From contig JACQJH010000001.1 in assembly GCA_016205145.1 (NCBI GenBank), forward strand, positions 195,501 through 259,500: 64,000 nucleotides of DNA, given 5' to 3'. The notes under the pieces are model-generated. The model worked only from the letters and a program-made list of their open reading frames with translations. It searched no databases and was not told the origin of the DNA. The translations under genes and the position numbers were made by a program. Source of the stretch: Candidatus Iainarchaeum sp. Lineage in GTDB: Archaea; Iainarchaeota; Iainarchaeia; Iainarchaeales; JACQJH01. The first letter of the stretch is position 1. The number at the start of each line of letters is the position of its first letter. Shown piece after piece: positions 230 through 47,041 of this stretch.

Positions 230-538
230 TCACTTTGCAATTATGTCCAAGACCCTGCTCTTGCCCGTTTCTTCCACGGTGAGAGTTGAAATCACAAAAG
301 GCTTTCCGCAGACCGAACCGAGCGAAAGCCCCGTTCCTTCGAACTCGAAAACCGGGACGTTGCAGGTTTTTCCGAGATTCCGGATTTTTTCCTTGACCGT
401 CACGGGCGAGTCGAGGCTCACTACGACAAGCGCGCCTTTTCCGCCTAGCACGCTTTTCTCGCTCTGCCTCACGCCGAAAACAACCTTTCCGGTGTCCACG
501 GCCCTGCGTATTTCCCTTTTCGCGTCAACTTCTGCCAT
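230..538 (-). CDS. rpl30e: 50S ribosomal protein L30e
   Basis: 102-aa ORF (AEVDAKREIRRAVDTGKVVFGVRQSEKSVLGGKGALVVVS...). Conserved placement between rpoA'' and nusA in archaea. Confidence 0.85.
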   Translation of the reverse strand: MAEVDAKREIRRAVDTGKVVFGVRQSEKSVLGGKGALVVVSLDSPVTVKEKIRNLGKTCNVPVFEFEGTGLSLGSVCGKPFVISTLTVEETGKSRVLDIIAK

Positions 539-663
539 GCAGTATCACTGAACAAAATTGCACAGCCGGAACGAAAAAAACAGAAGGATTCAAAAGAAGC
601 GCCTTCTCATTTTTTACTCCAGCGCAATAAGACCTGTCCGGGCAAGCATTTTAAAAAGCAATC

Positions 664-774
664 CCCGGCGATTTCGTCCGCCGGGTTCGACGACGGGTAT
701 TCTTCGCAAACCATTGGTTTGCGACGTGCCCAGAATCTTCGGATTCTGGAGCATCGCTTCGCTCAATACCCCTC
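664..774 (+). repeat. Intergenic composite element: D/E hairpins with module B inserted in the second hairpin loop (L30e-rpoA'' spacer)
   Basis: CGGCGATTTCGTCCGCCG GGTTCGACGAC GGGTATTCTTCGC [AAACCATTGGTTTGCGACGTGCCCAGAATCTTCGGATTCTGGAGCATCGC] TTCGCTCAATACCC. The bracketed 50 nt are module B. Confidence 0.75.
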
Positions 775-794
775 TGTCCGCCTTTAAATCTCTT

Positions 795-2060
795 TCACTT
801 GCCCCCCTTCATCACCAATTCGACTATTCCCGTGCCGACTTTTATCGGCTGGCCGACGATTATGTTTTCAACGACGCCTTCAAGGTTTTCGACTTCGCCC
901 TTGAATGCCGCGTCAAGCAGATGCTTTATTGTTTCCTCGAACGCGGCTCTCGCGAACGGCGAGCTTTTCTCGCGCGTTATTCCCGTCCTGACTATGCCCT
1001 TGATGTCGCCGCTGTAAGTCATCATGTCCGCAAGCAAAATGATGTGCCTGACGTCGACGGCGATTCCGTTGTCGTCAAGCGTCTTCTTGAGTTCCTTGAC
1101 AATCATGGCTCTCGCAGCCTCTATTCCGAAAACCTTGCTGATTTCCATGACATCGTTTGTCGTGGTCCTCGCGGGATCGATTTCCTTGAGCTTCAAAACG
1201 CTTTTCATGTTGCTGCCGGAAGTCTTGATGACGAACTCGCCTTTTTCCTCGACAAGAAGCGTCTTTGTTATGCCCTTCACGCCCTGCACCCTTGAATTCA
1301 GCAGCTTCAGCAAGTGCTTCCTTATTTTCAGCAGGGATTCCTTTTTTGAAAACGAGAATTCGACGACGTTCTTGCGCTGCCTCGCCTCGCCAAGCTTTAG
1401 GCCGGTCTTGATTTTGTCGACAAGGTCTTTTTCGTCGACGTTTCTCGCCTCGGCCTTGGCTTCGTCGATTTCTATCTGCAGCACGTTGTTGGCAAAGTTT
1501 TCCTTCACGCTGACAACGTCGGAAATCCTGACGTCCAAGAGAGATTTGGCAAACTTGTCGGCTTCCTTGCCGTTTTTTCCAAGCCCGCCGTCCAGATAAA
1601 TCGTCATTGTCGGATACTTGGCTTTGCTCCTGCCGTCGACTATCTCTTCAACCCTCTGGATTCCCGAGCCGACTGAAACTTCCGCTGCGCCCGCATAGTG
1701 CTTTGTCCTCAAAGTAAGCTGGGTTGCCGGCTCGCCAAGCGACTGCGCGGCGACAATGCCGACAGCTTCGCCCGGTTCAACGACAAGGTTTTCATAGCGC
1801 TCCTTTATTTTTTCCGCCAGAATGCCCGCTTTTTCCCTGCTCATGTTCTTTTTTTCCGCAAACAAGACGATTTCGTCAAGCACTTTTTTCGGCAGTTCGA
1901 CTTTTTCCCAGGAGCGGAGCTCTATTTTCGGGATTTCACGGTCCTTCCTGCTTTTTTCCTCGGCCTCTTCGGCAACTTCTTCAGCTTCTTCTTCGGCCTC
2001 TTCGCTGTCCTCAAGGGCTTCGTCTTTTTTTTCCGGGGTTTTCTTTTTCTTTGCCGCCAT
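795..2060 (-). CDS. rpoA2: DNA-directed RNA polymerase subunit A'' (C-terminal part of the split largest subunit)
   Basis: 421 aa with an acidic/basic N-terminal tail, then motifs conserved in RpoA'' (VVEPGEAVGIVAAQSLGEPATQLTLRTKHYAGAAEVSVGSGIQRVEEIVDG). Confidence 0.9.
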   Translation of the reverse strand: MAAKKKKTPEKKDEALEDSEEAEEEAEEVAEEAEEKSRKDREIPKIELRSWEKVELPKKVLDEIVLFAEKKNMSREKAGILAEKIKERYENLVVEPGEAVGIVAAQSLGEPATQLTLRTKHYAGAAEVSVGSGIQRVEEIVDGRSKAKYPTMTIYLDGGLGKNGKEADKFAKSLLDVRISDVVSVKENFANNVLQIEIDEAKAEARNVDEKDLVDKIKTGLKLGEARQRKNVVEFSFSKKESLLKIRKHLLKLLNSRVQGVKGITKTLLVEEKGEFVIKTSGSNMKSVLKLKEIDPARTTTNDVMEISKVFGIEAARAMIVKELKKTLDDNGIAVDVRHIILLADMMTYSGDIKGIVRTGITREKSSPFARAAFEETIKHLLDAAFKGEVENLEGVVENIIVGQPIKVGTGIVELVMKGGK

Positions 2061-2069
2061 TTTTTCACA

Positions 2070-4682
2070 TCAGTTTTCGATTTTCTTTATTTCCTCTTCA
2101 ACGTCAATCGTCTTGCCCCTGCGGGTTTTGCGCGGGAACACTCCGTCCTCGCCGTAAACGAACTGCACGACATTCCTGTTGGCCGTCCTTACGGTTGCGT
2201 CGTTCCACACGGTCAGGTCCTTGAGGCTGTTGGCAAGGCGCCTGTACAGGTAGCCTGAAACCTTTGTCGAAACGCCCGTGTCGACTTCACCCTGCCTTCC
2301 GCCCATTGCGTGGTAGAAATATTCCTTCGGGTGCATTCCCTCGAGGAAATTCTGCTGGATGAAGCCGCCCGCCAGCGCTCCAACGTCGCCTTTCTTGTTG
2401 TGGGTTATGAGCCTTTTGTCAAAGCCCTTTTTCGGCCTTCCTTCCCTTACAGAGGCCTGGCCCCAGAAGCCTGAAATGTTCATGAGGTTCGTGCTCGAAC
2501 CGCGGCTGCCCGAAATTATCATCACGGTCGTGTTGAGTTTCGGGTTTTCCGTGAGAACATCCTGCTGGAGCTTTTCCTTCAAAATTTCCTTTTCGACCTT
2601 CGCCTTGACTTCCGAGCCCAGCCTCATCATGCTGATTTCAAAGCTCTCGTCCAGGGTCCTGCCCGGAATGATGTGCAGGGTTCCCTTATTGTACTTGTCG
2701 ACCAGCTCCCTGCCCTTTTCAAGCTCTTCCTGGATTGCCCTGTCCTTGGCCCTCTTTATGGTGTCGCTTACCTCGTATTCGTCCAGGCCGACTGTCATGC
2801 CCTTCTTTGTCAGCAGATCGCCTATGATGCGGCTGATCCTGTAATAGAATTCCTCAAGCACTTCGCTCGGATAATTCCTTGCCAGCGCATCCGCAATCCT
2901 TCCCCTGCCCTCGCCCAGGCCGGCTTCGTCTATGACACCGGAAACGAGCTTTCCGTTTTTTATGCGCACGAAAGCGTCAAACCTGTCATATTCTTCGACG
3001 GTCTTCTCCTTCACAAGGCCCGCGTCCTCAAGCAGCTTGCACATGTTCGACTTGAATTCGAGGTTCAAATCCTGCGGCAGCATCAATGAAAAGATCAGCT
3101 TTCCGGAATACCTTTTGCCTAAGTCGGGCTTGGGCATTTCAGTGAGGCCGATTTCGTAAAAGTATTTCATCGCCTCTTCCCTTGAAAACGTCGTCGATTT
3201 CATTGTGAGCGCGAACGCGCCTGAAATGCCGTCCTCGTCCATGATTATGACCGGTGCGCCGTACCTCGGCGAAACTATCTGGTCCCTGACAAGCATCAAT
3301 TGCCTTGCCTCGGTCTTGCCTTCCTCTGTCTGCGGCACATGCATGTTCATTTCGTCGCCGTCGAAGTCCGCGTTGTAAGGCTTGCAGACAATCGGATTGA
3401 TCCTGAACGTTCGGCCCGGCATTACCCTGACAAAGTGCGCCATCATTGAAAGCCTGTGCAGTGAGGGCTGCCTGTTGAACAAGACAATGTCGCCGTCCTG
3501 CAGCTTCCTTTCAACCCTGAAGCCGATGTCCAGTTCCGCAAGGATCTCTTCCTTCATTTCCTCGGAAACCTTCTTGCGCGTTCCGTTCGGCCTGATGATG
3601 TAGCTGATTTCGTCGCCGTGCTTTATCATCTTCTCGATTTCCTTCTTGTTGTATTCGGTAACCGCTTCCGGCACTGTAAGTTCGTCGGCGATTTCCTTCG
3701 GCACGCCGAGCTCGCTTATCTTGATGTAAGGGTCCGGCGTTATCGTCGAGCGCGCGGCAAAGTTGACGCGCTTTCCCGTCAAATTGTGGCGGAACCTTCC
3801 CTTCTTTCCCTTGAGCCTCTGAACAAGAGTGCGCAAGGCCCTTCCGCTTCTGTGCTTTGCCGGCGGCACGCCCGCCGTTTCATTGTCAAAATAAGTGGTA
3901 ACGTGGTATTGCAGCAGGTCCCACAAATCCTCGATTATGAGCTGCGGCGCGCCCGCATCGATGTTGTCCTTCAATCTCAGATTTATCCTGATGATGTCGA
4001 CAAGCTTGTGCGTCAGGTCGTCCTCGGACTTTATGCCCGACTCGAGTGTTATGGACGGCCTGATTGTTATCGGCGGAACCGGAAGAACCGTTATTATGAA
4101 CCATTCCGGCTTGATTATTTCCGGATTGTAGCCGAAAAGCTTAAGGTCATCGACTGAAATCTTTTCAACCCATTCCCTTATCTGAGTGGGATAGATGCGG
4201 TCCTTGTCCAAATAGAAGTTTGTCGGCTTGTCCAGTGAAACCGCGCCCCTGTCAGCATTGCAGTGCGGGCATTTCCTTGACTTCTTCGCTTTCGCAACAA
4301 CTGTCTTGCTCAAATCCTTTCCGGGCACGTGGCCGTCGCGCACTTCCTTGAGCTTGTCGTCCTTGATTGAAATTTTGCCGCAGCTCTGGCAGGTCGCGTT
4401 CATCAGACTTTCAAGCTTCCTTCCGAATTCGGGATGGATTATCGGCCTGACAAGCTCCATGCTGCCGAAGTGGCCGGGGCACTGCTTCATTTTCTGGCCG
4501 CATGTCTTGCACCTAAGGCCCGGGTTTATGACTCCGAGATGCGGGTCCATGAGGCCGCCTTCCATCGGATAACCGTCCTTGTCGTACGTTTCCGGAGTCT
4601 TGATTTCAATCGCAGACATTTTCCTTATCTGCGAAGGGTTCAGCATAAGAAACTGCACGCTTTCAATCCTTTTTGCCAGCAT
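2070..4682 (-). CDS. rpoA1: DNA-directed RNA polymerase subunit A'
   Basis: 870 aa containing the zinc-binding N-terminus (CKTCGQKMKQCPGHFG), the NADFDGDEMN catalytic motif and other Rpb1-like blocks. Confidence 0.95.
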   Translation of the reverse strand: MLAKRIESVQFLMLNPSQIRKMSAIEIKTPETYDKDGYPMEGGLMDPHLGVINPGLRCKTCGQKMKQCPGHFGSMELVRPIIHPEFGRKLESLMNATCQSCGKISIKDDKLKEVRDGHVPGKDLSKTVVAKAKKSRKCPHCNADRGAVSLDKPTNFYLDKDRIYPTQIREWVEKISVDDLKLFGYNPEIIKPEWFIITVLPVPPITIRPSITLESGIKSEDDLTHKLVDIIRINLRLKDNIDAGAPQLIIEDLWDLLQYHVTTYFDNETAGVPPAKHRSGRALRTLVQRLKGKKGRFRHNLTGKRVNFAARSTITPDPYIKISELGVPKEIADELTVPEAVTEYNKKEIEKMIKHGDEISYIIRPNGTRKKVSEEMKEEILAELDIGFRVERKLQDGDIVLFNRQPSLHRLSMMAHFVRVMPGRTFRINPIVCKPYNADFDGDEMNMHVPQTEEGKTEARQLMLVRDQIVSPRYGAPVIIMDEDGISGAFALTMKSTTFSREEAMKYFYEIGLTEMPKPDLGKRYSGKLIFSLMLPQDLNLEFKSNMCKLLEDAGLVKEKTVEEYDRFDAFVRIKNGKLVSGVIDEAGLGEGRGRIADALARNYPSEVLEEFYYRISRIIGDLLTKKGMTVGLDEYEVSDTIKRAKDRAIQEELEKGRELVDKYNKGTLHIIPGRTLDESFEISMMRLGSEVKAKVEKEILKEKLQQDVLTENPKLNTTVMIISGSRGSSTNLMNISGFWGQASVREGRPKKGFDKRLITHNKKGDVGALAGGFIQQNFLEGMHPKEYFYHAMGGRQGEVDTGVSTKVSGYLYRRLANSLKDLTVWNDATVRTANRNVVQFVYGEDGVFPRKTRRGKTIDVEEEIKKIEN

Positions 4683-4749: not shown

Positions 4750-6567
4750 TCAAACCTTGTCCTTTATGATGAGCTTGGGGAAAACTCCCAAAGCCTTCAG
4801 CTCGTCAAGCAATAATTTGAAACTGTAACTCATTTCAATCGGATAAATGCGCGCGCTGTCGCACAAAGGGCAGAAACGCTTGTTCCTGATGACGTCGTTG
4901 ACTGCCAGCACGCCGCACCTTTCGCAGACGTATTCGACGGTCTTGTCCGAGCTTTCAATGAGCTTTTCCTGCAGCAGCATGGCCGCGCCATGCCCAACCA
5001 GTGTTTCGGCTTCCATTTCGCCGAAGCGCAGGCCGCCTTCCTTCTCTTTCCCTTCTGTCGGCTGCCTTGTCAGAATCTGCACTGGCCCGCGCGACCTGGA
5101 CTGCATCTTGTGCGCGACCATGTGGAACAGCCTCCTGTAACCGCATACGCCCACAAAAATTTCGCCTTCAAGCCTTTCGCCTGAAACCCCGTCGTAAAAC
5201 ACTTCCTTGCCGTCGCTCCTGAAACCGTAATCCGACAGCATTCCTTCAAGCGCTTCCAAAGGGGTTTCATTGAACGCAGTGCCATCAATCGCTTTCGACT
5301 TCAATGAGCCGGCCTTGCCTGCAATCATTTCCAGCAAATGCCCGATCGTCATCCTTGAAGGAATCGAATGCGGGTTAATTATCAGATCCGGCTTTATGCC
5401 TTCGGCAGTGAACGGCATGTCTGCTTCAGGTATGACCCCGCCGATGACGCCTTTCTGGCCGTGCCTGCTTGAAAACTTGTCACCGCGCTCCGGAGACATT
5501 TCGGTCCTCACCTTGACCTTGATCAATTTGTTGCCGTCCTCGCTTTCAGTCACGATAACTTTGTCAACATATCCCGGCTTGCCCTTGCGCGTTATCACGG
5601 AGCTTTCCCTTCTCTTTTCCTTGACAACGCCGAACTCGGATATTTCCTCCAAAAACCTTGGAGGCGAGGTTCTTCCGACGATTATTTCCTTTTCCTTGAC
5701 TTCTGCCTCAACTCTCACAAGGCCGTCCTCTCCAAGATTCTTGTAGGCATCCTCTCCAAGATAGCCTTCGACGTCTTCCGCCGGAATCTCAAGCTTGTCC
5801 TTCTGCCCGCCCGGATACCTGTTCTCGGTTCCGTCGTACGTCCTGTAATATGCGGCCCTTCCGAGGCCCCTTTCAACCGAGCCCTCGTTCAGCACAAGAG
5901 CGTCCAAGACATTGAAACTGTAAAACGGCATGATCGCAACGACAAAGTTCTGGTTCTGCGGCCTCTTGTCCACGCCGATGAAATCCATGACTTTCGTTTT
6001 CACAAGATGCGACTGAGGATAGTAAAGCAAAAAGCCCTCGGTGTCCGTGCGCAAATTCATGTTGATTGCCGGAATGCCAAGCGCCTGCTTGAACATTTTT
6101 GCGCCGTGCAATGCCTTGCCCGCCATGTTATGCGTAAGGTACGGGATCATGGAAGTGATGAGCGAAAAAACCGCGGAAGCGTCAATCTCAAGATGCGTGT
6201 GCTCGTTCGAAAGCTCGTCCTCGGAAACCGCGACAAAAGCGTTTTCCTCCTCTTCGGAGTCAAGGTACTCTATTATGCCCTTGCTTATCAGGTCGTTCCA
6301 CGAAAACTTGCCTTCCTTCGCCATGCGCACGTGCTCGTCCGTCAGCAACGGCCTGCCGTTCTCAACAATAATGAGGGGCCTCTGCACCCTTCCGGAATCG
6401 GTGTTGATGTAAACCTCGTTCGTCTGCCTGTTCAAGGCAACATTCACGAGATGCGAGATTTTTCCGGAACGCCTCGACTTTATGAGCTCCTGCGTCAGTT
6501 TCTCAGGGCTCTCATGGAAACCAATGAGCCTTCCGTTGATGTAAACCTTTCCGATTTCCGCCATCAT
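4750..6567 (-). CDS. rpoB1: DNA-directed RNA polymerase subunit B' (C-terminal half of split subunit B)
   Basis: 605 aa with Rpb2 C-terminal motifs (GQKGVIG, SRMTIGHLLE, zinc ribbon CERCG...CPLC). Confidence 0.9.
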   Translation of the reverse strand: MMAEIGKVYINGRLIGFHESPEKLTQELIKSRRSGKISHLVNVALNRQTNEVYINTDSGRVQRPLIIVENGRPLLTDEHVRMAKEGKFSWNDLISKGIIEYLDSEEEENAFVAVSEDELSNEHTHLEIDASAVFSLITSMIPYLTHNMAGKALHGAKMFKQALGIPAINMNLRTDTEGFLLYYPQSHLVKTKVMDFIGVDKRPQNQNFVVAIMPFYSFNVLDALVLNEGSVERGLGRAAYYRTYDGTENRYPGGQKDKLEIPAEDVEGYLGEDAYKNLGEDGLVRVEAEVKEKEIIVGRTSPPRFLEEISEFGVVKEKRRESSVITRKGKPGYVDKVIVTESEDGNKLIKVKVRTEMSPERGDKFSSRHGQKGVIGGVIPEADMPFTAEGIKPDLIINPHSIPSRMTIGHLLEMIAGKAGSLKSKAIDGTAFNETPLEALEGMLSDYGFRSDGKEVFYDGVSGERLEGEIFVGVCGYRRLFHMVAHKMQSRSRGPVQILTRQPTEGKEKEGGLRFGEMEAETLVGHGAAMLLQEKLIESSDKTVEYVCERCGVLAVNDVIRNKRFCPLCDSARIYPIEMSYSFKLLLDELKALGVFPKLIIKDKV

Positions 6568-41420: not shown

Positions 41421-41590
41421 TCGTAGAATTTGTGGAACTTTGTGTGCAGAATGCCTTCGCCTTGTTCAGTCTTTCAGTCATTCCGGTTCAATTCCTGATG
41501 GCAATGGGCCTTTTGCAGTTCGCCACAGCCATGCCTGGCGCAACAATCGCGTTCCCGGTTTACTTTCCCAGAAACGCAAAAAATTAGGAA

Positions 41591-41736
41591 TGCCCCGGCC
41601 GGGATTCGAACCCGGGTCGCGGCCTCACCCCGCTCTTGAATTTTTTGGAAAATCCTTGAGAGGGCCGAGTGCTTTCGGCAACAGCTGCTTTTTTTTATAA
41701 AAACAAACCGTTTTAGCCGGACTACACCACCGGGGC
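41591..41736 (-). tRNA. tRNA-Glu(CTC) carrying two introns (about 40 nt in the D-loop plus about 31 nt at 37/38)
   Basis: Exon 1 GCCCCGGTGGTGTAGTCCGGCTAAA, exon 2 CACTCGGCCCTCTCA, exon 3 AGGCCGCGACCCGGGTTCGAATCCCGGCCGGGGCA. Once spliced it matches the archaeal tRNA-Glu/Gln scaffold (D-arm GTGTAGTCCGGC, T-arm CCGGGTTCGAATCCCGG). The anticodon stem CGGCC/GGCCG is perfect. Confidence 0.65.
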
Positions 41737-42498
41737 ACTGCAGAATTTTTTGAACCTGTTTATGTGCTTTTTGTTGCTGAACCCGATTTCAGTGAAATAA
41801 CGCAGGACTTCTTTAGAATCTCCCATTGAGCACTGCATTGTATTCCTGTCCTTCTTTTGGGTCCATTTAGATACTCTGTAGCCCAATATTTTAAATGCCT
41901 TTGTTATGCTGCTTTGGATTGTAGGCGATGCCGTGGCGAACCAGATTGTGGGCGTTTTGTGCCTGCGCGTTTTCGGGTAAACGCTTCCGTCAGTGTCAAT
42001 CAATCCCCTGACACAGGCTTTAAGGTAACCGCTTTTTCCAAGAACCCAGCAGGGAATTGCCGCGCCATTCGTGGTTTTATTGCCGTTTTTTATGCCAAAA
42101 TGCATCAGCGTGTGCACCAAATTTTTGCTTTGCTTGAATATGACGACAGCGTTTCCGGTTTTTGGAAATTTTATGCTGAATTCGGTTCCAAACACTTTTT
42201 TGAACAGGCCCGAAGTATAATTTGTCAGATAATCAAAATCGTTCCCGCGATGGCCTATAATTCTTATTTGGTAAATGCTTTTTTCTTTTATAACCTGGCA
42301 GTTTCCGTCGCCAAGCATTATGCCGATAATTTCCGCAAGCTCCGCGCTTTTCTTTTTTGCAAGCAATTTCGGTTTCATCGGCAAGAATTTGCCGTTCTTC
42401 CGCGGCTGCAGCCGGCAATTACCCATAATGTACTGTTGTTTTTGTGGACAAAAGGGGTTTGCCAAGTGGCTTTCCCCTGATTCTTGATTTGGCCTCAC
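41722..42498 (-). CDS. Free-standing LAGLIDADG-family homing endonuclease (two LAGLIDADG motifs)
   Basis: Motif 1 AEIIGIMLGDGN and motif 2 RGLIDTDGSV are separated by about 100 aa, the arrangement of single-chain LAGLIDADG enzymes. The 3' end overlaps the 5' end of tRNA-Glu by about 15 nt. Confidence 0.75.
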   Translation of the reverse strand: MRPNQESGESHLANPFCPQKQQYIMGNCRLQPRKNGKFLPMKPKLLAKKKSAELAEIIGIMLGDGNCQVIKEKSIYQIRIIGHRGNDFDYLTNYTSGLFKKVFGTEFSIKFPKTGNAVVIFKQSKNLVHTLMHFGIKNGNKTTNGAAIPCWVLGKSGYLKACVRGLIDTDGSVYPKTRRHKTPTIWFATASPTIQSSITKAFKILGYRVSKWTQKKDRNTMQCSMGDSKEVLRYFTEIGFSNKKHINRFKKFCSAPVV

Positions 42499-44882
42499 AC
42501 CGCCTTTTCATAGCTTGCGCGCGTGAACGGCATGTCCGCAAAGCCTTTTCCACCGCCAAGCTTTTCCTTGACGGATGCGATGATTTTTTCCGCGTCTTCG
42601 CCTGAAACGCTGCCAACATCGACCCTGACAACATCGGCAATCGCTTCGAGCTTTTCAAGCTCCGGAACCATGTTCATCGCCATAGGATTGTAGAGGTGCG
42701 TGCGCTCGCTTTCATCCAGTTCAACAGCATATTTCCACTTGTTCCTGTCGATGAGAGTATACCTGCCTTTTTTTGGCAATATTTTGGTTTCGATTATCAT
42801 TATTTCCGGAAGTTCGAATGCGACAAGCTCAATCTTTGCGTCCGTGCGTTTCCGTGTAGCGGAAAGCTGTTTGAGCGTCAGTTCCCCTGACGGCAAAATC
42901 CTTTCGACCTGCGGGTTTTTGGCGAAAAAGTTTGCGGCAATGGAATTGAACACGTTCAAGTTTTTGCCGATGATGATTTTTTCAAAGCCCTGCCCCGCAA
43001 GCCAGTGATAGAGGCCGAGGTTGTTGCATTCGATTGCCGCGCCCGCAAGCTCCGCGCTTTTGCCTTTCACTGTTTCCGACAGCTTTTTGGCGAGCGCTGC
43101 AAGCTCATGGTCCTTCATTATCACGGGCGTTGAAAGCACAAGCTGCATTGCGTGCTCGGAGCAGATTTTTTGCGCTTCAAGCAATGTTTTTTTGTCCGCG
43201 TTTTCCGGGAACGAAACCGCGCAGGGCTTTGCCTGCAGGAAAGCATTCAACTGCTTGAGCGAGGAAACCTTGACTGAGATGGCGGCCTTTCTGCCTTTTT
43301 CATGCCCCGCGTCCTTCAGCAGTTCTTTTTTCCGTTCCTCGAATTTTTTAGCATCAACGTTTTTCCTGAAACCTTCAAGCTTTTTTTTGGTGAACGCGTC
43401 GATGGCTTTCCTGCGCAGGTCGTTGAGCTTGCTGAACGGAACCATGAGGCCCTCGTCGACCTTGACGCTGATGCTTTTCAATTCAAACAATGTTTCGCCG
43501 GTCTTTGAAAGCTTTTCCTCGGCAACCTTTTCTCCGAGCGGGATTTTTTCGGCTTTTTTCGGCGTGAAATCCGAGACGACTTCCGCGGAGGTTTGCCCGT
43601 CAAAAGCCCTTATCCTGAATTCTTTGTGTGAAATTTTCGCTTCAAGGTTCACTTCCGGCTTTTTCATGGTCTTGATTGACGAGTAAGCAAGGTCGGTGAG
43701 CTGTTTGGACTGCACCTTGAAGATTGTCCACCCTTTTTTGATTTCGTGCGGAACCTCGATTTCGACTATTTCGTTTGCAAACGCGTGTTCCATTTCCTTT
43801 CCGTTTTTCAGGATTTTTTTGGCAAAAAAGTCCACTCTCTCGTCGCCCAGCTTGTGCGACAATTTGTCCCATTTCCTGACGCGCTCGAACAATTGGACCT
43901 TTATCTTGCCGTCGGCGTATTCAAGCACTTTCGCGACGCGTATTCCGACCTTTCCCGGATAATCCTTTTTTATGATGTCGTCGTTCTTGCCGTTGAAGTG
44001 CCCTGCCGAAAAGTCGCGGTTGTAGGCTATGCGCAGCTGCTTTATCTCGTCTTCCGAAACCGCTTCTTTTCCGCCGAACGCGTTATCGATTGCTTTCCTG
44101 TAAACCCTTGTCGCAATTGCAACATATTCAGTGCCCTTTTTCCTTCCCTCGATTTTGAATGCCGAAACGCCTGCTTCGGCAAGCTGTTTTATCATGGGCA
44201 CCGCGAAAAGGTCCTTCTGCGACAGCAGATAGCCTTCGTCAATCCTTTTCCCGCCTTCTTCCAAATCGTAAAACAGGCGGCAGTTCTGCGCGCACCTTCC
44301 GCGGTTGCCGGAGCGCTTGAACGAAACGCTGCTCGCAAAGCACTGCCCCGAATATGCTACACACATCGCGCCATGCACAAAGCACTCAACCTCTATTCCG
44401 GTCCCAACCCGTGATTTCATTTCATGGATTTCTTCAACCGAGTTTTCCCTTGCCAGCACCGCGCGCTTGATGCCAAGATCTTTTGCAAACAGCAGTCCTT
44501 CGGTGTTGTGGATTGTCATCTGCGTGCTTGCATGCAATCTCAGCCCGGGCAAAAGCTCGTGCAGGCTGTGCGCCAGGCCGACGTCCTGCACGATTACAGC
44601 GTCAATGCCATGCTCGTACGCACTCTTCGCCATGTCGATTGCCGCGCCGATCTCGAACTCGTTGAGCAGAATGTTCAATGTAAGGTAGGCTTTCCTGCCG
44701 TGCAAATGCAAATAGTCGATTGCTTCTTTCACCTGCTCAGGCGAAAAGTTTTGCGCGCCGATCCTTGCATTGAACGCCTGGTAGCCGAAGTAAACAGCGT
44801 CCGCGCCGTTTGCGACCGCAGCTTTCATGTGCTCAAAGCTGCCCGCCGGGGCGACAAGCTCCGGTTTGATTTGTTTCACCAT
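42495..44882 (-). CDS. Peptidase U32 family protein (collagenase-like; RlhA/TrhP-type), long form
   Basis: N-terminal U32 catalytic region (ELVAPAGSFEHMKAAVANGADAVYFGYQAFNARIG...YLTLNIL...E). 795 aa with a long C-terminal extension. Confidence 0.85.
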   Translation of the reverse strand: MVKQIKPELVAPAGSFEHMKAAVANGADAVYFGYQAFNARIGAQNFSPEQVKEAIDYLHLHGRKAYLTLNILLNEFEIGAAIDMAKSAYEHGIDAVIVQDVGLAHSLHELLPGLRLHASTQMTIHNTEGLLFAKDLGIKRAVLARENSVEEIHEMKSRVGTGIEVECFVHGAMCVAYSGQCFASSVSFKRSGNRGRCAQNCRLFYDLEEGGKRIDEGYLLSQKDLFAVPMIKQLAEAGVSAFKIEGRKKGTEYVAIATRVYRKAIDNAFGGKEAVSEDEIKQLRIAYNRDFSAGHFNGKNDDIIKKDYPGKVGIRVAKVLEYADGKIKVQLFERVRKWDKLSHKLGDERVDFFAKKILKNGKEMEHAFANEIVEIEVPHEIKKGWTIFKVQSKQLTDLAYSSIKTMKKPEVNLEAKISHKEFRIRAFDGQTSAEVVSDFTPKKAEKIPLGEKVAEEKLSKTGETLFELKSISVKVDEGLMVPFSKLNDLRRKAIDAFTKKKLEGFRKNVDAKKFEERKKELLKDAGHEKGRKAAISVKVSSLKQLNAFLQAKPCAVSFPENADKKTLLEAQKICSEHAMQLVLSTPVIMKDHELAALAKKLSETVKGKSAELAGAAIECNNLGLYHWLAGQGFEKIIIGKNLNVFNSIAANFFAKNPQVERILPSGELTLKQLSATRKRTDAKIELVAFELPEIMIIETKILPKKGRYTLIDRNKWKYAVELDESERTHLYNPMAMNMVPELEKLEAIADVVRVDVGSVSGEDAEKIIASVKEKLGGGKGFADMPFTRASYEKAV

Positions 44883-46932: not shown

Positions 46933-47041
46933 TGCCGGTGGCGAGATATGAACTCGCGGCCTCTTGATTATGAGTTTCGCCCCGCAACACAAAAAAGCTG
47001 AATTGCAGTCAAGCGCTCTAACCAGGCTGAGCTACACCGGC
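46933..47041 (-). tRNA. tRNA-Cys(GCA) with ~34-nt intron at 37/38 (intron 46969..47002)
   Basis: The 5' exon GCCGGTGTAGCTCAGCCTGGTTAGAGCGCTTGACTGCAA and the 3' exon ATCAAGAGGCCGCGAGTTCATATCTCGCCACCGGCA give perfect acceptor and anticodon stems. The T-loop TTCATAT is slightly atypical. A TATA-like CTTTTAAAAGCC sits about 35 nt upstream. Confidence 0.6.

Follow-up and report, generated by a model that had tools for sequence, protein, structure and literature searches.

The 64,000-nucleotide (nt) stretch of the Candidatus Iainarchaeum sp. contig JACQJH010000001.1 analysed here (the window) carries on its minus strand a gene for a predicted LAGLIDADG homing endonuclease, whose last codons run into the 5′ end of a tRNA-Glu gene with two introns. 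The original prediction had placed this open reading frame (ORF) at 41722-42498. The minus-strand frame 41722..42498 is open as described, but the gene itself is of a short form (41722..42426, minus strand; 234 codons plus stop; supported by the ORF, Pfam, homologues and a structure model). Its start, the ATG at 42426, is set by the short-form relatives, which share a conserved N-terminal LQPRxKNGxF sequence, and by the NCBI model P0001 (Candidatus Diapherotrites archaeon), a protein of 234 amino acids (aa) with 100% identity to the window protein. The G+C content of the gene (window 41800-42400) is 0.42-0.45, against ~0.50-0.55 in the flanking genes for the H+-translocating pyrophosphatase (H+-PPase) and a U32 peptidase.

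Both LAGLIDADG motifs expected in the ORF are present. Motif 1, LAEIIGIMLGDGN (42301..42339, minus strand), includes the putative catalytic Asp40 within GDG, and motif 2, GLIDTDGSV (41980..42006, minus strand), the putative catalytic Asp146 within DTDG. The hidden Markov model search proposed to confirm the family matched the C-terminal half to Pfam LAGLIDADG_3 (25.4 bits, cutoff 22.5); the N-terminal half fell below threshold for LAGLIDADG_2. GDG and DTDG (D40 and D146) are invariant across 34 diverse homologues (alignment A1), and GDG is retained in 82 of the 84 related loci described below. An AlphaFold2 model (predicted local distance difference test score, pLDDT, 92.9; predicted template modelling score, pTM, 0.89) shows two H-E-E-H-E-E-H repeats, that is, the pseudo-dimeric LAGLIDADG fold, and its best Foldseek matches in the PDB are PI-PfuI, I-Tsp061I and I-DmoI, with I-AniI also found (E = 1e-10 to 1e-7) and WhiA and the bI3 maturase among the further structural matches. 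The ORF is therefore predicted to encode a single-chain, two-motif LAGLIDADG homing endonuclease. Most members of its family have in addition an N-terminal helix-turn-helix (HTH) domain of ~90 aa, starting M-R-I-K-L-K-K-G-K-Q and giving weak HTH_3, HTH_24 and Xre-like matches (for example P0012, P0049 and P0104), which is absent from the window protein and from scattered other short forms. The gene is free-standing, as had been proposed: the upstream U32 peptidase gene is complete and ends on its own stop codon, so the endonuclease is not part of an intein, and no Hint or intein domain was found in a Pfam search of the window locus.

The adjoining tRNA-Glu(CUC) gene (41591..41736, minus strand; 146 nt) consists of exons 41714-41736, 41657-41673 and 41591-41625, with the anticodon CUC at 41658..41660 (minus strand) and a mature length of 75 nt. 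Rfam reports a tRNA at 41591-41736 on the minus strand (38.5 bits) and shows its D loop to be enlarged by 48 nt and its anticodon loop by 33 nt. ARAGORN did not detect the unspliced tRNA-Glu in the raw window, because of the D-loop intron; tRNAs missed by this program were found by Rfam and by our own structure-based finder. Computation and hand analysis of the boundaries confirmed the two introns noticed in the original prediction. The first is a non-canonical D-loop intron of 40 nt (41674..41713, minus strand) at Sprinzl position ~20b/21, with a relaxed bulge-helix-bulge (BHB) motif (HBh′) in which helix H is CGGC/GCCG (4 base pairs, bp), the 3-nt bulges are UAA and AAA, and h′ comprises 7 bp. 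The second is a canonical anticodon-loop intron at 37/38 (31 nt; 41626..41656, minus strand), with H formed by CUCU/GGGG (4 bp) and 3-nt bulges CAA and UGA. Once both are removed, a 75-nt RNA results, which ARAGORN recognizes as tRNA-Glu(ctc) with a perfect cloverleaf and which matches intron-less alleles column for column in the alignment.

The overlap between the two genes covers nt 1-15 of the tRNA (GCCCCGGTGGTGTAG; 41722..41736, minus strand). The final codons of the ORF, GCC CCG GTG GTG TAG (A-P-V-V-stop), are these very nucleotides, the TAG being tRNA nt 13-15, in keeping with what had been read from the sequence, and 8 nt separate the stop from the D-loop intron. An oligo-T run 7 nt past the tRNA 3′ end (41578..41583, minus strand), noted from the sequence only, is likely to be an archaeal transcription terminator. 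On the other side, the A/T-rich CACATAAA (41759..41766, minus strand) lies 23-30 nt upstream of tRNA +1, within the conserved K-H-I-N-R-F codons of the ORF, and might conceivably be an embedded tRNA promoter.

This arrangement is not peculiar to the window. A protein search retrieved 240 homologues, chiefly from DPANN archaea with a few from bacteria of the candidate phyla radiation (CPR), and a genome scan with one genome per GTDB species gave 355 relatives, of which the best 80 were analysed; the loci are labelled L followed by a number, and 84, nearly all of them from DPANN archaea, were assessable for the tRNA junction. In 77 of these 84, a co-oriented tRNA passing a strict test (acceptor pairing and T-arm) starts at the ORF end, and the remaining seven visibly begin a Glu or Gln tRNA with extra introns. 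In ~42 loci the stop codon occupies tRNA nt 13-15 and in ~12 it occupies nt 8-10, the ORF reading deeper otherwise, and all three reading frames into the tRNA are represented. The frequent C-terminal A/S-P-x-V of the family is a translated tRNA acceptor and D-stem; [AS][PL]xV endings occur in 48 of 120 proteins of an independent sample. When six homologue contexts were inspected, the ORF lay beside a co-oriented tRNA-Glu in all six, ending in five on the same TAG inside tRNA-Glu(CUC) and in the sixth, from a Woesearchaeote, 45 nt ahead of a tRNA-Glu(UUC). A coincidental neighbourhood, or an artefact of gene calling, might have been suspected, as ORF lists are mechanical and the tRNA was missed by ARAGORN. 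Chance adjacency is excluded, however, by the position of the tRNA 5′ end at the ORF end in 84 of 84 homologous loci, and an artefact is hard to reconcile with the Pfam match, the 240 homologues and the confident model (pLDDT 92.9), so that we give this explanation practically no credence.

The junction tRNAs belong to a narrow set of isoacceptors. An anticodon script assigned 62 of the 64 resolved cases to Glu(CUC/UUC) or Gln(CUG/UUG). It called the remaining two Arg (in the CPR-like L084) and Ser (in L083, a doubtful call at a Glu-like 5′ end); the script misread L041, where it took the second tRNA, and L083 (Ser), and both were re-read by eye. One further junction tRNA, read by eye, is Asp. 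In a neighbour-joining tree of the endonucleases the clades track the isoacceptor, and the window protein falls within the Iainarchaeial (Diapherotrites) Glu(CUC) clade. The window locus is thus one member of a DPANN-wide architecture, and what is conserved in this architecture is the junction between ORF and tRNA. Two loci that are either CPR or mis-binned stand apart: in L085 (Nealsonbacteria) the ORF ends at 1128 and a tRNA-like, Ser(CGA)-like gene occupies 1129-1211, and in L084 a tRNA-Arg(GCG) lies 50 nt past the ORF. Through them the linkage may cross the domain boundary.

One sign of insertion lies in the sequence upstream of the endonuclease gene. In ~38 loci, judged significant against 300 random regions, the gene is preceded by a truncated, intron-less duplicate of the tRNA's own 5′ part (nt 1 to ~27). 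A native-looking TATA-like box lies ~30 nt upstream of this relic, as expected of an original gene start, and 31-42 nt, with another TATA-like box between, separate the end of the relic from the endonuclease ATG. Homology between relic and spliced tRNA is continuous across the D-loop intron site, which indicates that the invaded genes were intron-less, and stops at nt 22-28 in 19 of 22 loci, which places the junction in the 3′ side of the D-arm; the cassette junctions deduced in this way are displaced from the intron site by 1-6 nt in the 3′ direction. In one locus (L039) the upstream "relic" proved on inspection to be a full tRNA. The order in L041 is tRNA-Gln, 12 nt and tRNA-Glu, and in L048 it is tRNA-Gln, 3 nt, relic, endonuclease gene and tRNA-Glu; the two represent an empty and a filled site, respectively.

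Further sites without the gene were recovered. A metagenome scan using the syntenic rpiA gene found, in the window's clade, six loci with rpiA, tRNA-Met and tRNA-Glu(CUC) and no endonuclease gene, the filled counterparts being L003, L005/L013, L009 and L014. At homologous sites the gene is thus present in some cases and absent in others, a polymorphism seen between lineages only. Some copies are decaying: L038 is frameshifted, L084 split and L009 N-terminally eroded. The window gene also stands out from its flanks (~0.51) by its lower G+C. A scan of IMG/VR returned six weak matches (26-42% identity) and so gave no evidence of a viral vector. Together with the retained Asp residues and the D-loop intron association described below, the empty sites and the 5′ tRNA relics support the early proposal that the endonuclease is connected with the mobility of an intron or gene here.

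The 5′ tRNA fragments upstream of the gene in relatives could also be taken as true 5′ exons, in which case the ORF would either reside in one giant BHB intron of the tRNA-Glu gene or separate the two parts of a split tRNA. One fragment fits this: in the L048 relic (2613-2645), ~8 nt from the start of the D-loop intron (AAATTCTT) survive, and an h′ of 5 bp could still be made with the distal 3′ splice site. This relic may be a vestige of an earlier arrangement, with the endonuclease gene housed in the D-loop intron. As a general reading, however, the giant intron or split tRNA was rejected, the relic flank being unable to form h′ in seven of eight tested loci, with L048 the sole exception. In the window, moreover, the complete 5′ exon directly after the ORF yields a perfect tRNA, many downstream tRNAs elsewhere are intron-less and so offer no 3′ splice site, and the degenerate BHB or 5′ exon whose presence around the ORF had been suggested as a check was looked for and none significant was found in the window, where the U32 peptidase gene ends. 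We therefore regard an intron-resident ORF as very improbable, and the window gene is not intron-resident.

A third property of the family is its association with D-loop introns. When one structure-based finder was applied to all tRNAs in the loci, so that ascertainment was equal, D-loop insertions were found in 42 of 71 adjacent tRNAs, compared with 3 of 53 non-adjacent ones (Fisher p = 1.3e-10) and with 1 of 19 Glu/Gln tRNAs without an endonuclease gene (p = 1.6e-5). Rfam-detected tRNAs would be a biased control here, since Rfam under-detects tRNAs with such introns. The association holds within the window's clade (7/9 vs 0/6, p = 0.007), where the alignment places the insertion at the same column in 8 of 10 endonuclease-bearing alleles and in none of the 4 aligned empty alleles. 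A strict H-B-h′ motif is present in 28 of 40 insertions, against 4.9 expected from shuffles, with splice sites of the form ..GGYCA|A. Canonical anticodon-loop introns, for their part, are common in both adjacent and non-adjacent tRNAs.

Several observations on individual tRNAs touch this subject. In L057, L070, L077, L088 and L089 the D loop of an intron-less tRNA-Gln beside the endonuclease gene is one nucleotide longer than that of the upstream relic (AGTTGG or AGCTGG in place of AGTGG). In L082 (2721-2874) a tRNA-Gln(CUG) with a D-loop insertion has no endonuclease gene of its own and lies just upstream of a Glu-type cassette, and its intron is a candidate for spread or persistence without the gene. 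The tRNA-Glu(CUC) genes of Woese- and Pacearchaeota have anticodon-loop introns of unusual length (96-105 nt), whether the endonuclease gene is present or not (L045, L064, L078, L079, L086, L046 at 4337-4509 and L090 at 5173-5343).

On this evidence we think it probable that the window ORF is part of a DPANN-wide family of selfish cassettes, which insert in the D-arm of tRNA-Glu/Gln genes, bring a replacement 5′ segment and are linked to a BHB intron. From the relic junctions we infer that the enzyme would cut an uninterrupted tRNA-Glu/Gln gene in the D-arm, at ~nt 22-28. Repair would then draw on a cassette-bearing allele, the left homology arm being provided by the donor's relic and the sequence upstream of it, and the right one by the 3′ part of the tRNA. 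It would introduce a promoter together with the endonuclease gene, a fresh tRNA segment from nt 1 to ~27 and, in most cases, a short BHB intron at ~20b/21, and the recipient's own 5′ fragment would remain upstream as the relic. The new 5′ segment and the resident 3′ part would form a working tRNA gene, into which the ORF enters, borrowing its UAG as a stop. Replacement of a gene end, unlike residence in an intron or intein, rebuilds the target in the DNA, and an intron or a D-loop change would be needed against self-cleavage. The short intron, which splits the presumed recognition sequence in DNA and would be removed from the RNA by EndA, is a probable source of this immunity, and in some lineages changes of the D-loop sequence may replace it; the +1-nt difference seen in intron-less tRNA-Gln genes may be such a minimal alternative for escaping cleavage. 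If the left break end paired instead with the cassette's internal 5′ segment, the intron alone would be copied, a possible route to D-loop introns without an ORF. The tRNA would be transcribed from a promoter within the A/T-rich K-H-x-x-R-F codons, where TATA-like CAT(T/A)TAAA strings occur at variable distances, or from the endonuclease transcript.

A number of points weigh against this interpretation, or limit its reach. The D-loop intron is absent from ~40% of endonuclease-bearing tRNAs and hence not obligatory, and D-loop changes as an alternative source of immunity are only suggestive. The case for an embedded promoter consists of the A/T-rich codons, and adjacent and non-adjacent tRNAs have similar A/T profiles in their upstream regions. 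The genome sample is made up of the best 80 among 355 relatives, and because RGLIDTDG served as the scan pattern, the count of motif 2 conservation among these 80 genome loci is biased. The remaining points concern the window copy and its clade. The relic is undetectable throughout the Iainarchaeial clade, the window included: comparison of the window's upstream region with its own tRNA 5′ end gave no match (p = 0.94), and comparison with all 5′ ends of the family gave only a 10-nt match, GAGGCCAAAT (p = 0.04), which we treated as non-significant. On this match rests a possible decayed tRNA-Glu 5′ relic at the end of the U32 peptidase gene, GGCGGTGTGAGGCCAAA (42487..42503, minus strand). No polymorphism for the presence of the gene was found for the window's organism by exact look-ups of the flanking U32 peptidase, which led to one further contig, identically arranged, and to another that ends too early; the H+-PPase had no entry. 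Finally, several lineages share the gene order rpiA, tRNA-Met, endonuclease gene, tRNA-Glu. As its clade lacks the relic and its synteny is conserved, the window copy may be old, vertically inherited and no longer mobile.

These last points would fit another view, in which the gene is a fixed remnant, an old insertion passed on by descent and kept since its 3′ end supplies the promoter or transcript of an essential tRNA-Glu, rather than through continued homing. Besides the missing relic, the conserved gene order and the identical arrangement in the only other assembly of the organism, this account draws on the A/T-rich K-H-x-x-R-F codons, which lie at the expected promoter distance. Promoter capture, however, would keep only the last ~40 nt, not a full ORF with both Asp residues and a confidently predicted nuclease fold; decayed copies elsewhere show that the ORF erodes when it is not maintained, and the empty syntenic sites of related lineages reveal gain or loss. 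We therefore hold it to be unlikely overall, although for the window copy specifically an old, immobile insertion is a serious alternative. What the window copy presents is an intact ORF, intact catalytic residues and an intact D-loop intron, together with an undetectable relic and the absence of the N-terminal HTH.

A different function could also be envisaged, in which a domesticated LAGLIDADG protein, co-transcribed with its client gene, serves as a sequence-specific DNA- or RNA-binding factor in the expression or maturation of tRNA-Glu/Gln, in the manner of WhiA or the LAGLIDADG maturases. The tight co-oriented linkage to one class of tRNA across phyla, the N-terminal HTH of the long forms, and the presence of WhiA and the bI3 maturase among the structural matches would suit such a role. 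Nevertheless, the catalytic Asp residues are invariant here, syntenic sites without the gene have apparently normal tRNA-Glu genes, and the truncated duplicates of the tRNA 5′ end are the signature of an insertion and not of an operon. BHB introns, being spliced by EndA, require no maturase. The idea of a co-opted endonuclease, raised at the outset, found no support, since the distribution is patchy, some copies are decaying or pseudogenised and the catalytic residues are kept, and we judge domestication improbable.

The selfish-cassette interpretation can be set against several known systems. I-DmoI, I-Tsp061I and PI-PfuI, the best sequence and structure matches, share with the window enzyme the single-chain two-motif fold, the catalytic Asp pair and an archaeal host, as well as the association with BHB-type introns of stable-RNA genes. 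Their genes, however, lie within the intron or intein that interrupts the target, whereas the window gene lies outside, 5′ of the tRNA with a 15-nt overlap; its host gene is a tRNA and not an rRNA, and sequence identity is 12-21%. In its workings the system would be most like collaborative (trans) homing, in which free-standing phage endonucleases act together with group I introns that lack an ORF. Examples are F-CphI with the psbA group I intron of cyanophage S-PM2 (PMC3984707, citing Zeng et al. 2009) and mobE with I-TevIII in T4 (PMC3984707; PMC2790892). There too, a free-standing endonuclease gene adjoins a gene with an ORF-less intron, the target is at or near the intron site, and the intron protects the allele and can move along; in the window system the putative target may lie close to the intron site. 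The collaborative systems employ EndoVII-like or HNH enzymes and self-splicing group I introns in phages, in contrast to a LAGLIDADG enzyme and a protein-spliced BHB intron in a cellular tRNA gene. Unlike them, moreover, the cassettes of the window family carry a duplicate 5′ gene segment and leave a relic.

Other comparisons bear on the replacement of a gene end. Paquin et al. are said to have described, in 1994, a free-standing mitochondrial endonuclease ORF in Allomyces atp6 that carries a replacement gene end and leaves a pseudo-fragment. As in the window family, a duplicate of the displaced gene end would render the insertion harmless and produce a hybrid gene and a relic, although the Allomyces enzyme is reportedly a GIY-YIG endonuclease acting on the 3′ end of a protein gene in an organelle, and the window family replaces the 5′ end and promoter of a tRNA gene. 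Elements that integrate in archaeal or bacterial tRNA genes by means of an integrase likewise carry part of the tRNA, rebuild an intact gene and leave a partial direct repeat, but the cassette has no integrase, is ~1 kb long with the endonuclease only, and replaces the 5′ and not the 3′ part. WhiA resembles the long forms in its two-domain LAGLIDADG fold with an HTH, consistent with the structural match; it is not known to retain the catalytic acidic residues and is universally conserved in its own clade, whereas the endonuclease family is patchy with an invariant Asp pair. The differences from these known systems are the enzyme family, the protein-spliced BHB intron, the cellular tRNA host and the replacement of the 5′ exon and promoter. 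No description of archaeal LAGLIDADG genes fused to tRNA-Glu/Gln was found in the full-text literature, whose coverage is incomplete, so that a prior description is possible; the family is apparently a widespread, so far undescribed archaeal element invading tRNA-Glu/Gln genes.

The closest parallel to the tRNA itself is the pre-tRNA-Glu(UUC) of Methanopyrus kandleri, which has a relaxed HBh′ intron at 20b/21, cleaved in vitro, and a canonical one at 37/38 (PMC5829648). The two intron positions and the tRNA family are the same as in the window. M. kandleri is a euryarchaeon, not a DPANN archaeon, and no endonuclease gene is reported there (PMC5829648).

Why archaeal tRNA genes gain non-canonical introns, and why they fragment, are long-standing questions, to which protection from mobile elements was proposed earlier as an answer, without a concrete culprit. 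Randau and Soll, in 2008, reportedly suggested that the disruption of tRNA genes affords such protection. The locus described here and its 84 relatives are a candidate culprit with a clear genomic signature, namely tRNA-Glu/Gln specificity, intron-less 5′ relics and a nearby intron. A broader proposal, that this family drives the remodelling of DPANN tRNA genes, replacing 5′ exons and promoters and, by the pressure of cleavage, favouring the gain or trans-spread of D-loop BHB introns as immunity, we advance tentatively, as a possibility that does not quite reach even chances. If true, it would explain in a testable way how non-canonical archaeal tRNA introns arise and would support the protection hypothesis, and the copying of the intron alone would explain ORF-less D-loop introns such as that of the M. 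kandleri tRNA-Glu. A replacement gene end with its promoter would also represent a third way, beside the intron and the intein, for an endonuclease gene to spare an essential target. From a practical point of view, these compact enzymes could serve as scaffolds for rare-cutting nucleases, because they presumably recognize a near-universal tRNA sequence.

Some further observations were made in the course of the analysis. Distant LAGLIDADG paralogues also abut other tRNA genes: in L047 one (505-1155, plus strand) is co-oriented at the 5′ end of a tRNA-Thr(GGU) (1149-1276), those of L009 (853-1947, minus strand) and L093 (70-1146, minus strand) are convergent and reach over the 3′ end of a tRNA-Thr(GGU), and those of L007 (395-1246, minus strand) and L105 (3749-4660, minus strand) are convergent over the 3′ end of a tRNA-Met. 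As these paralogues adjoin tRNA-Thr and tRNA-Met, the targeting of tRNA genes by LAGLIDADG enzymes may reach beyond Glu and Gln. Several Iainarchaeial loci share a conserved pair, cctcagaactcataa ... gctcagcctgNtcttcat, between tRNA-Met and either the endonuclease gene or tRNA-Glu (L003, ~3850-3900; L009, ~3880-3960; L100, ~1380-1450; and, inverted, L014, ~820-890). In the window itself, a second intron-bearing tRNA gene, for tRNA-Cys(GCA), is located at 46933-47041 on the minus strand; it is 109 nt long with a 34-nt canonical anticodon-loop intron, has no adjoining endonuclease gene, and was found by Rfam (59.8 bits) and missed by ARAGORN.

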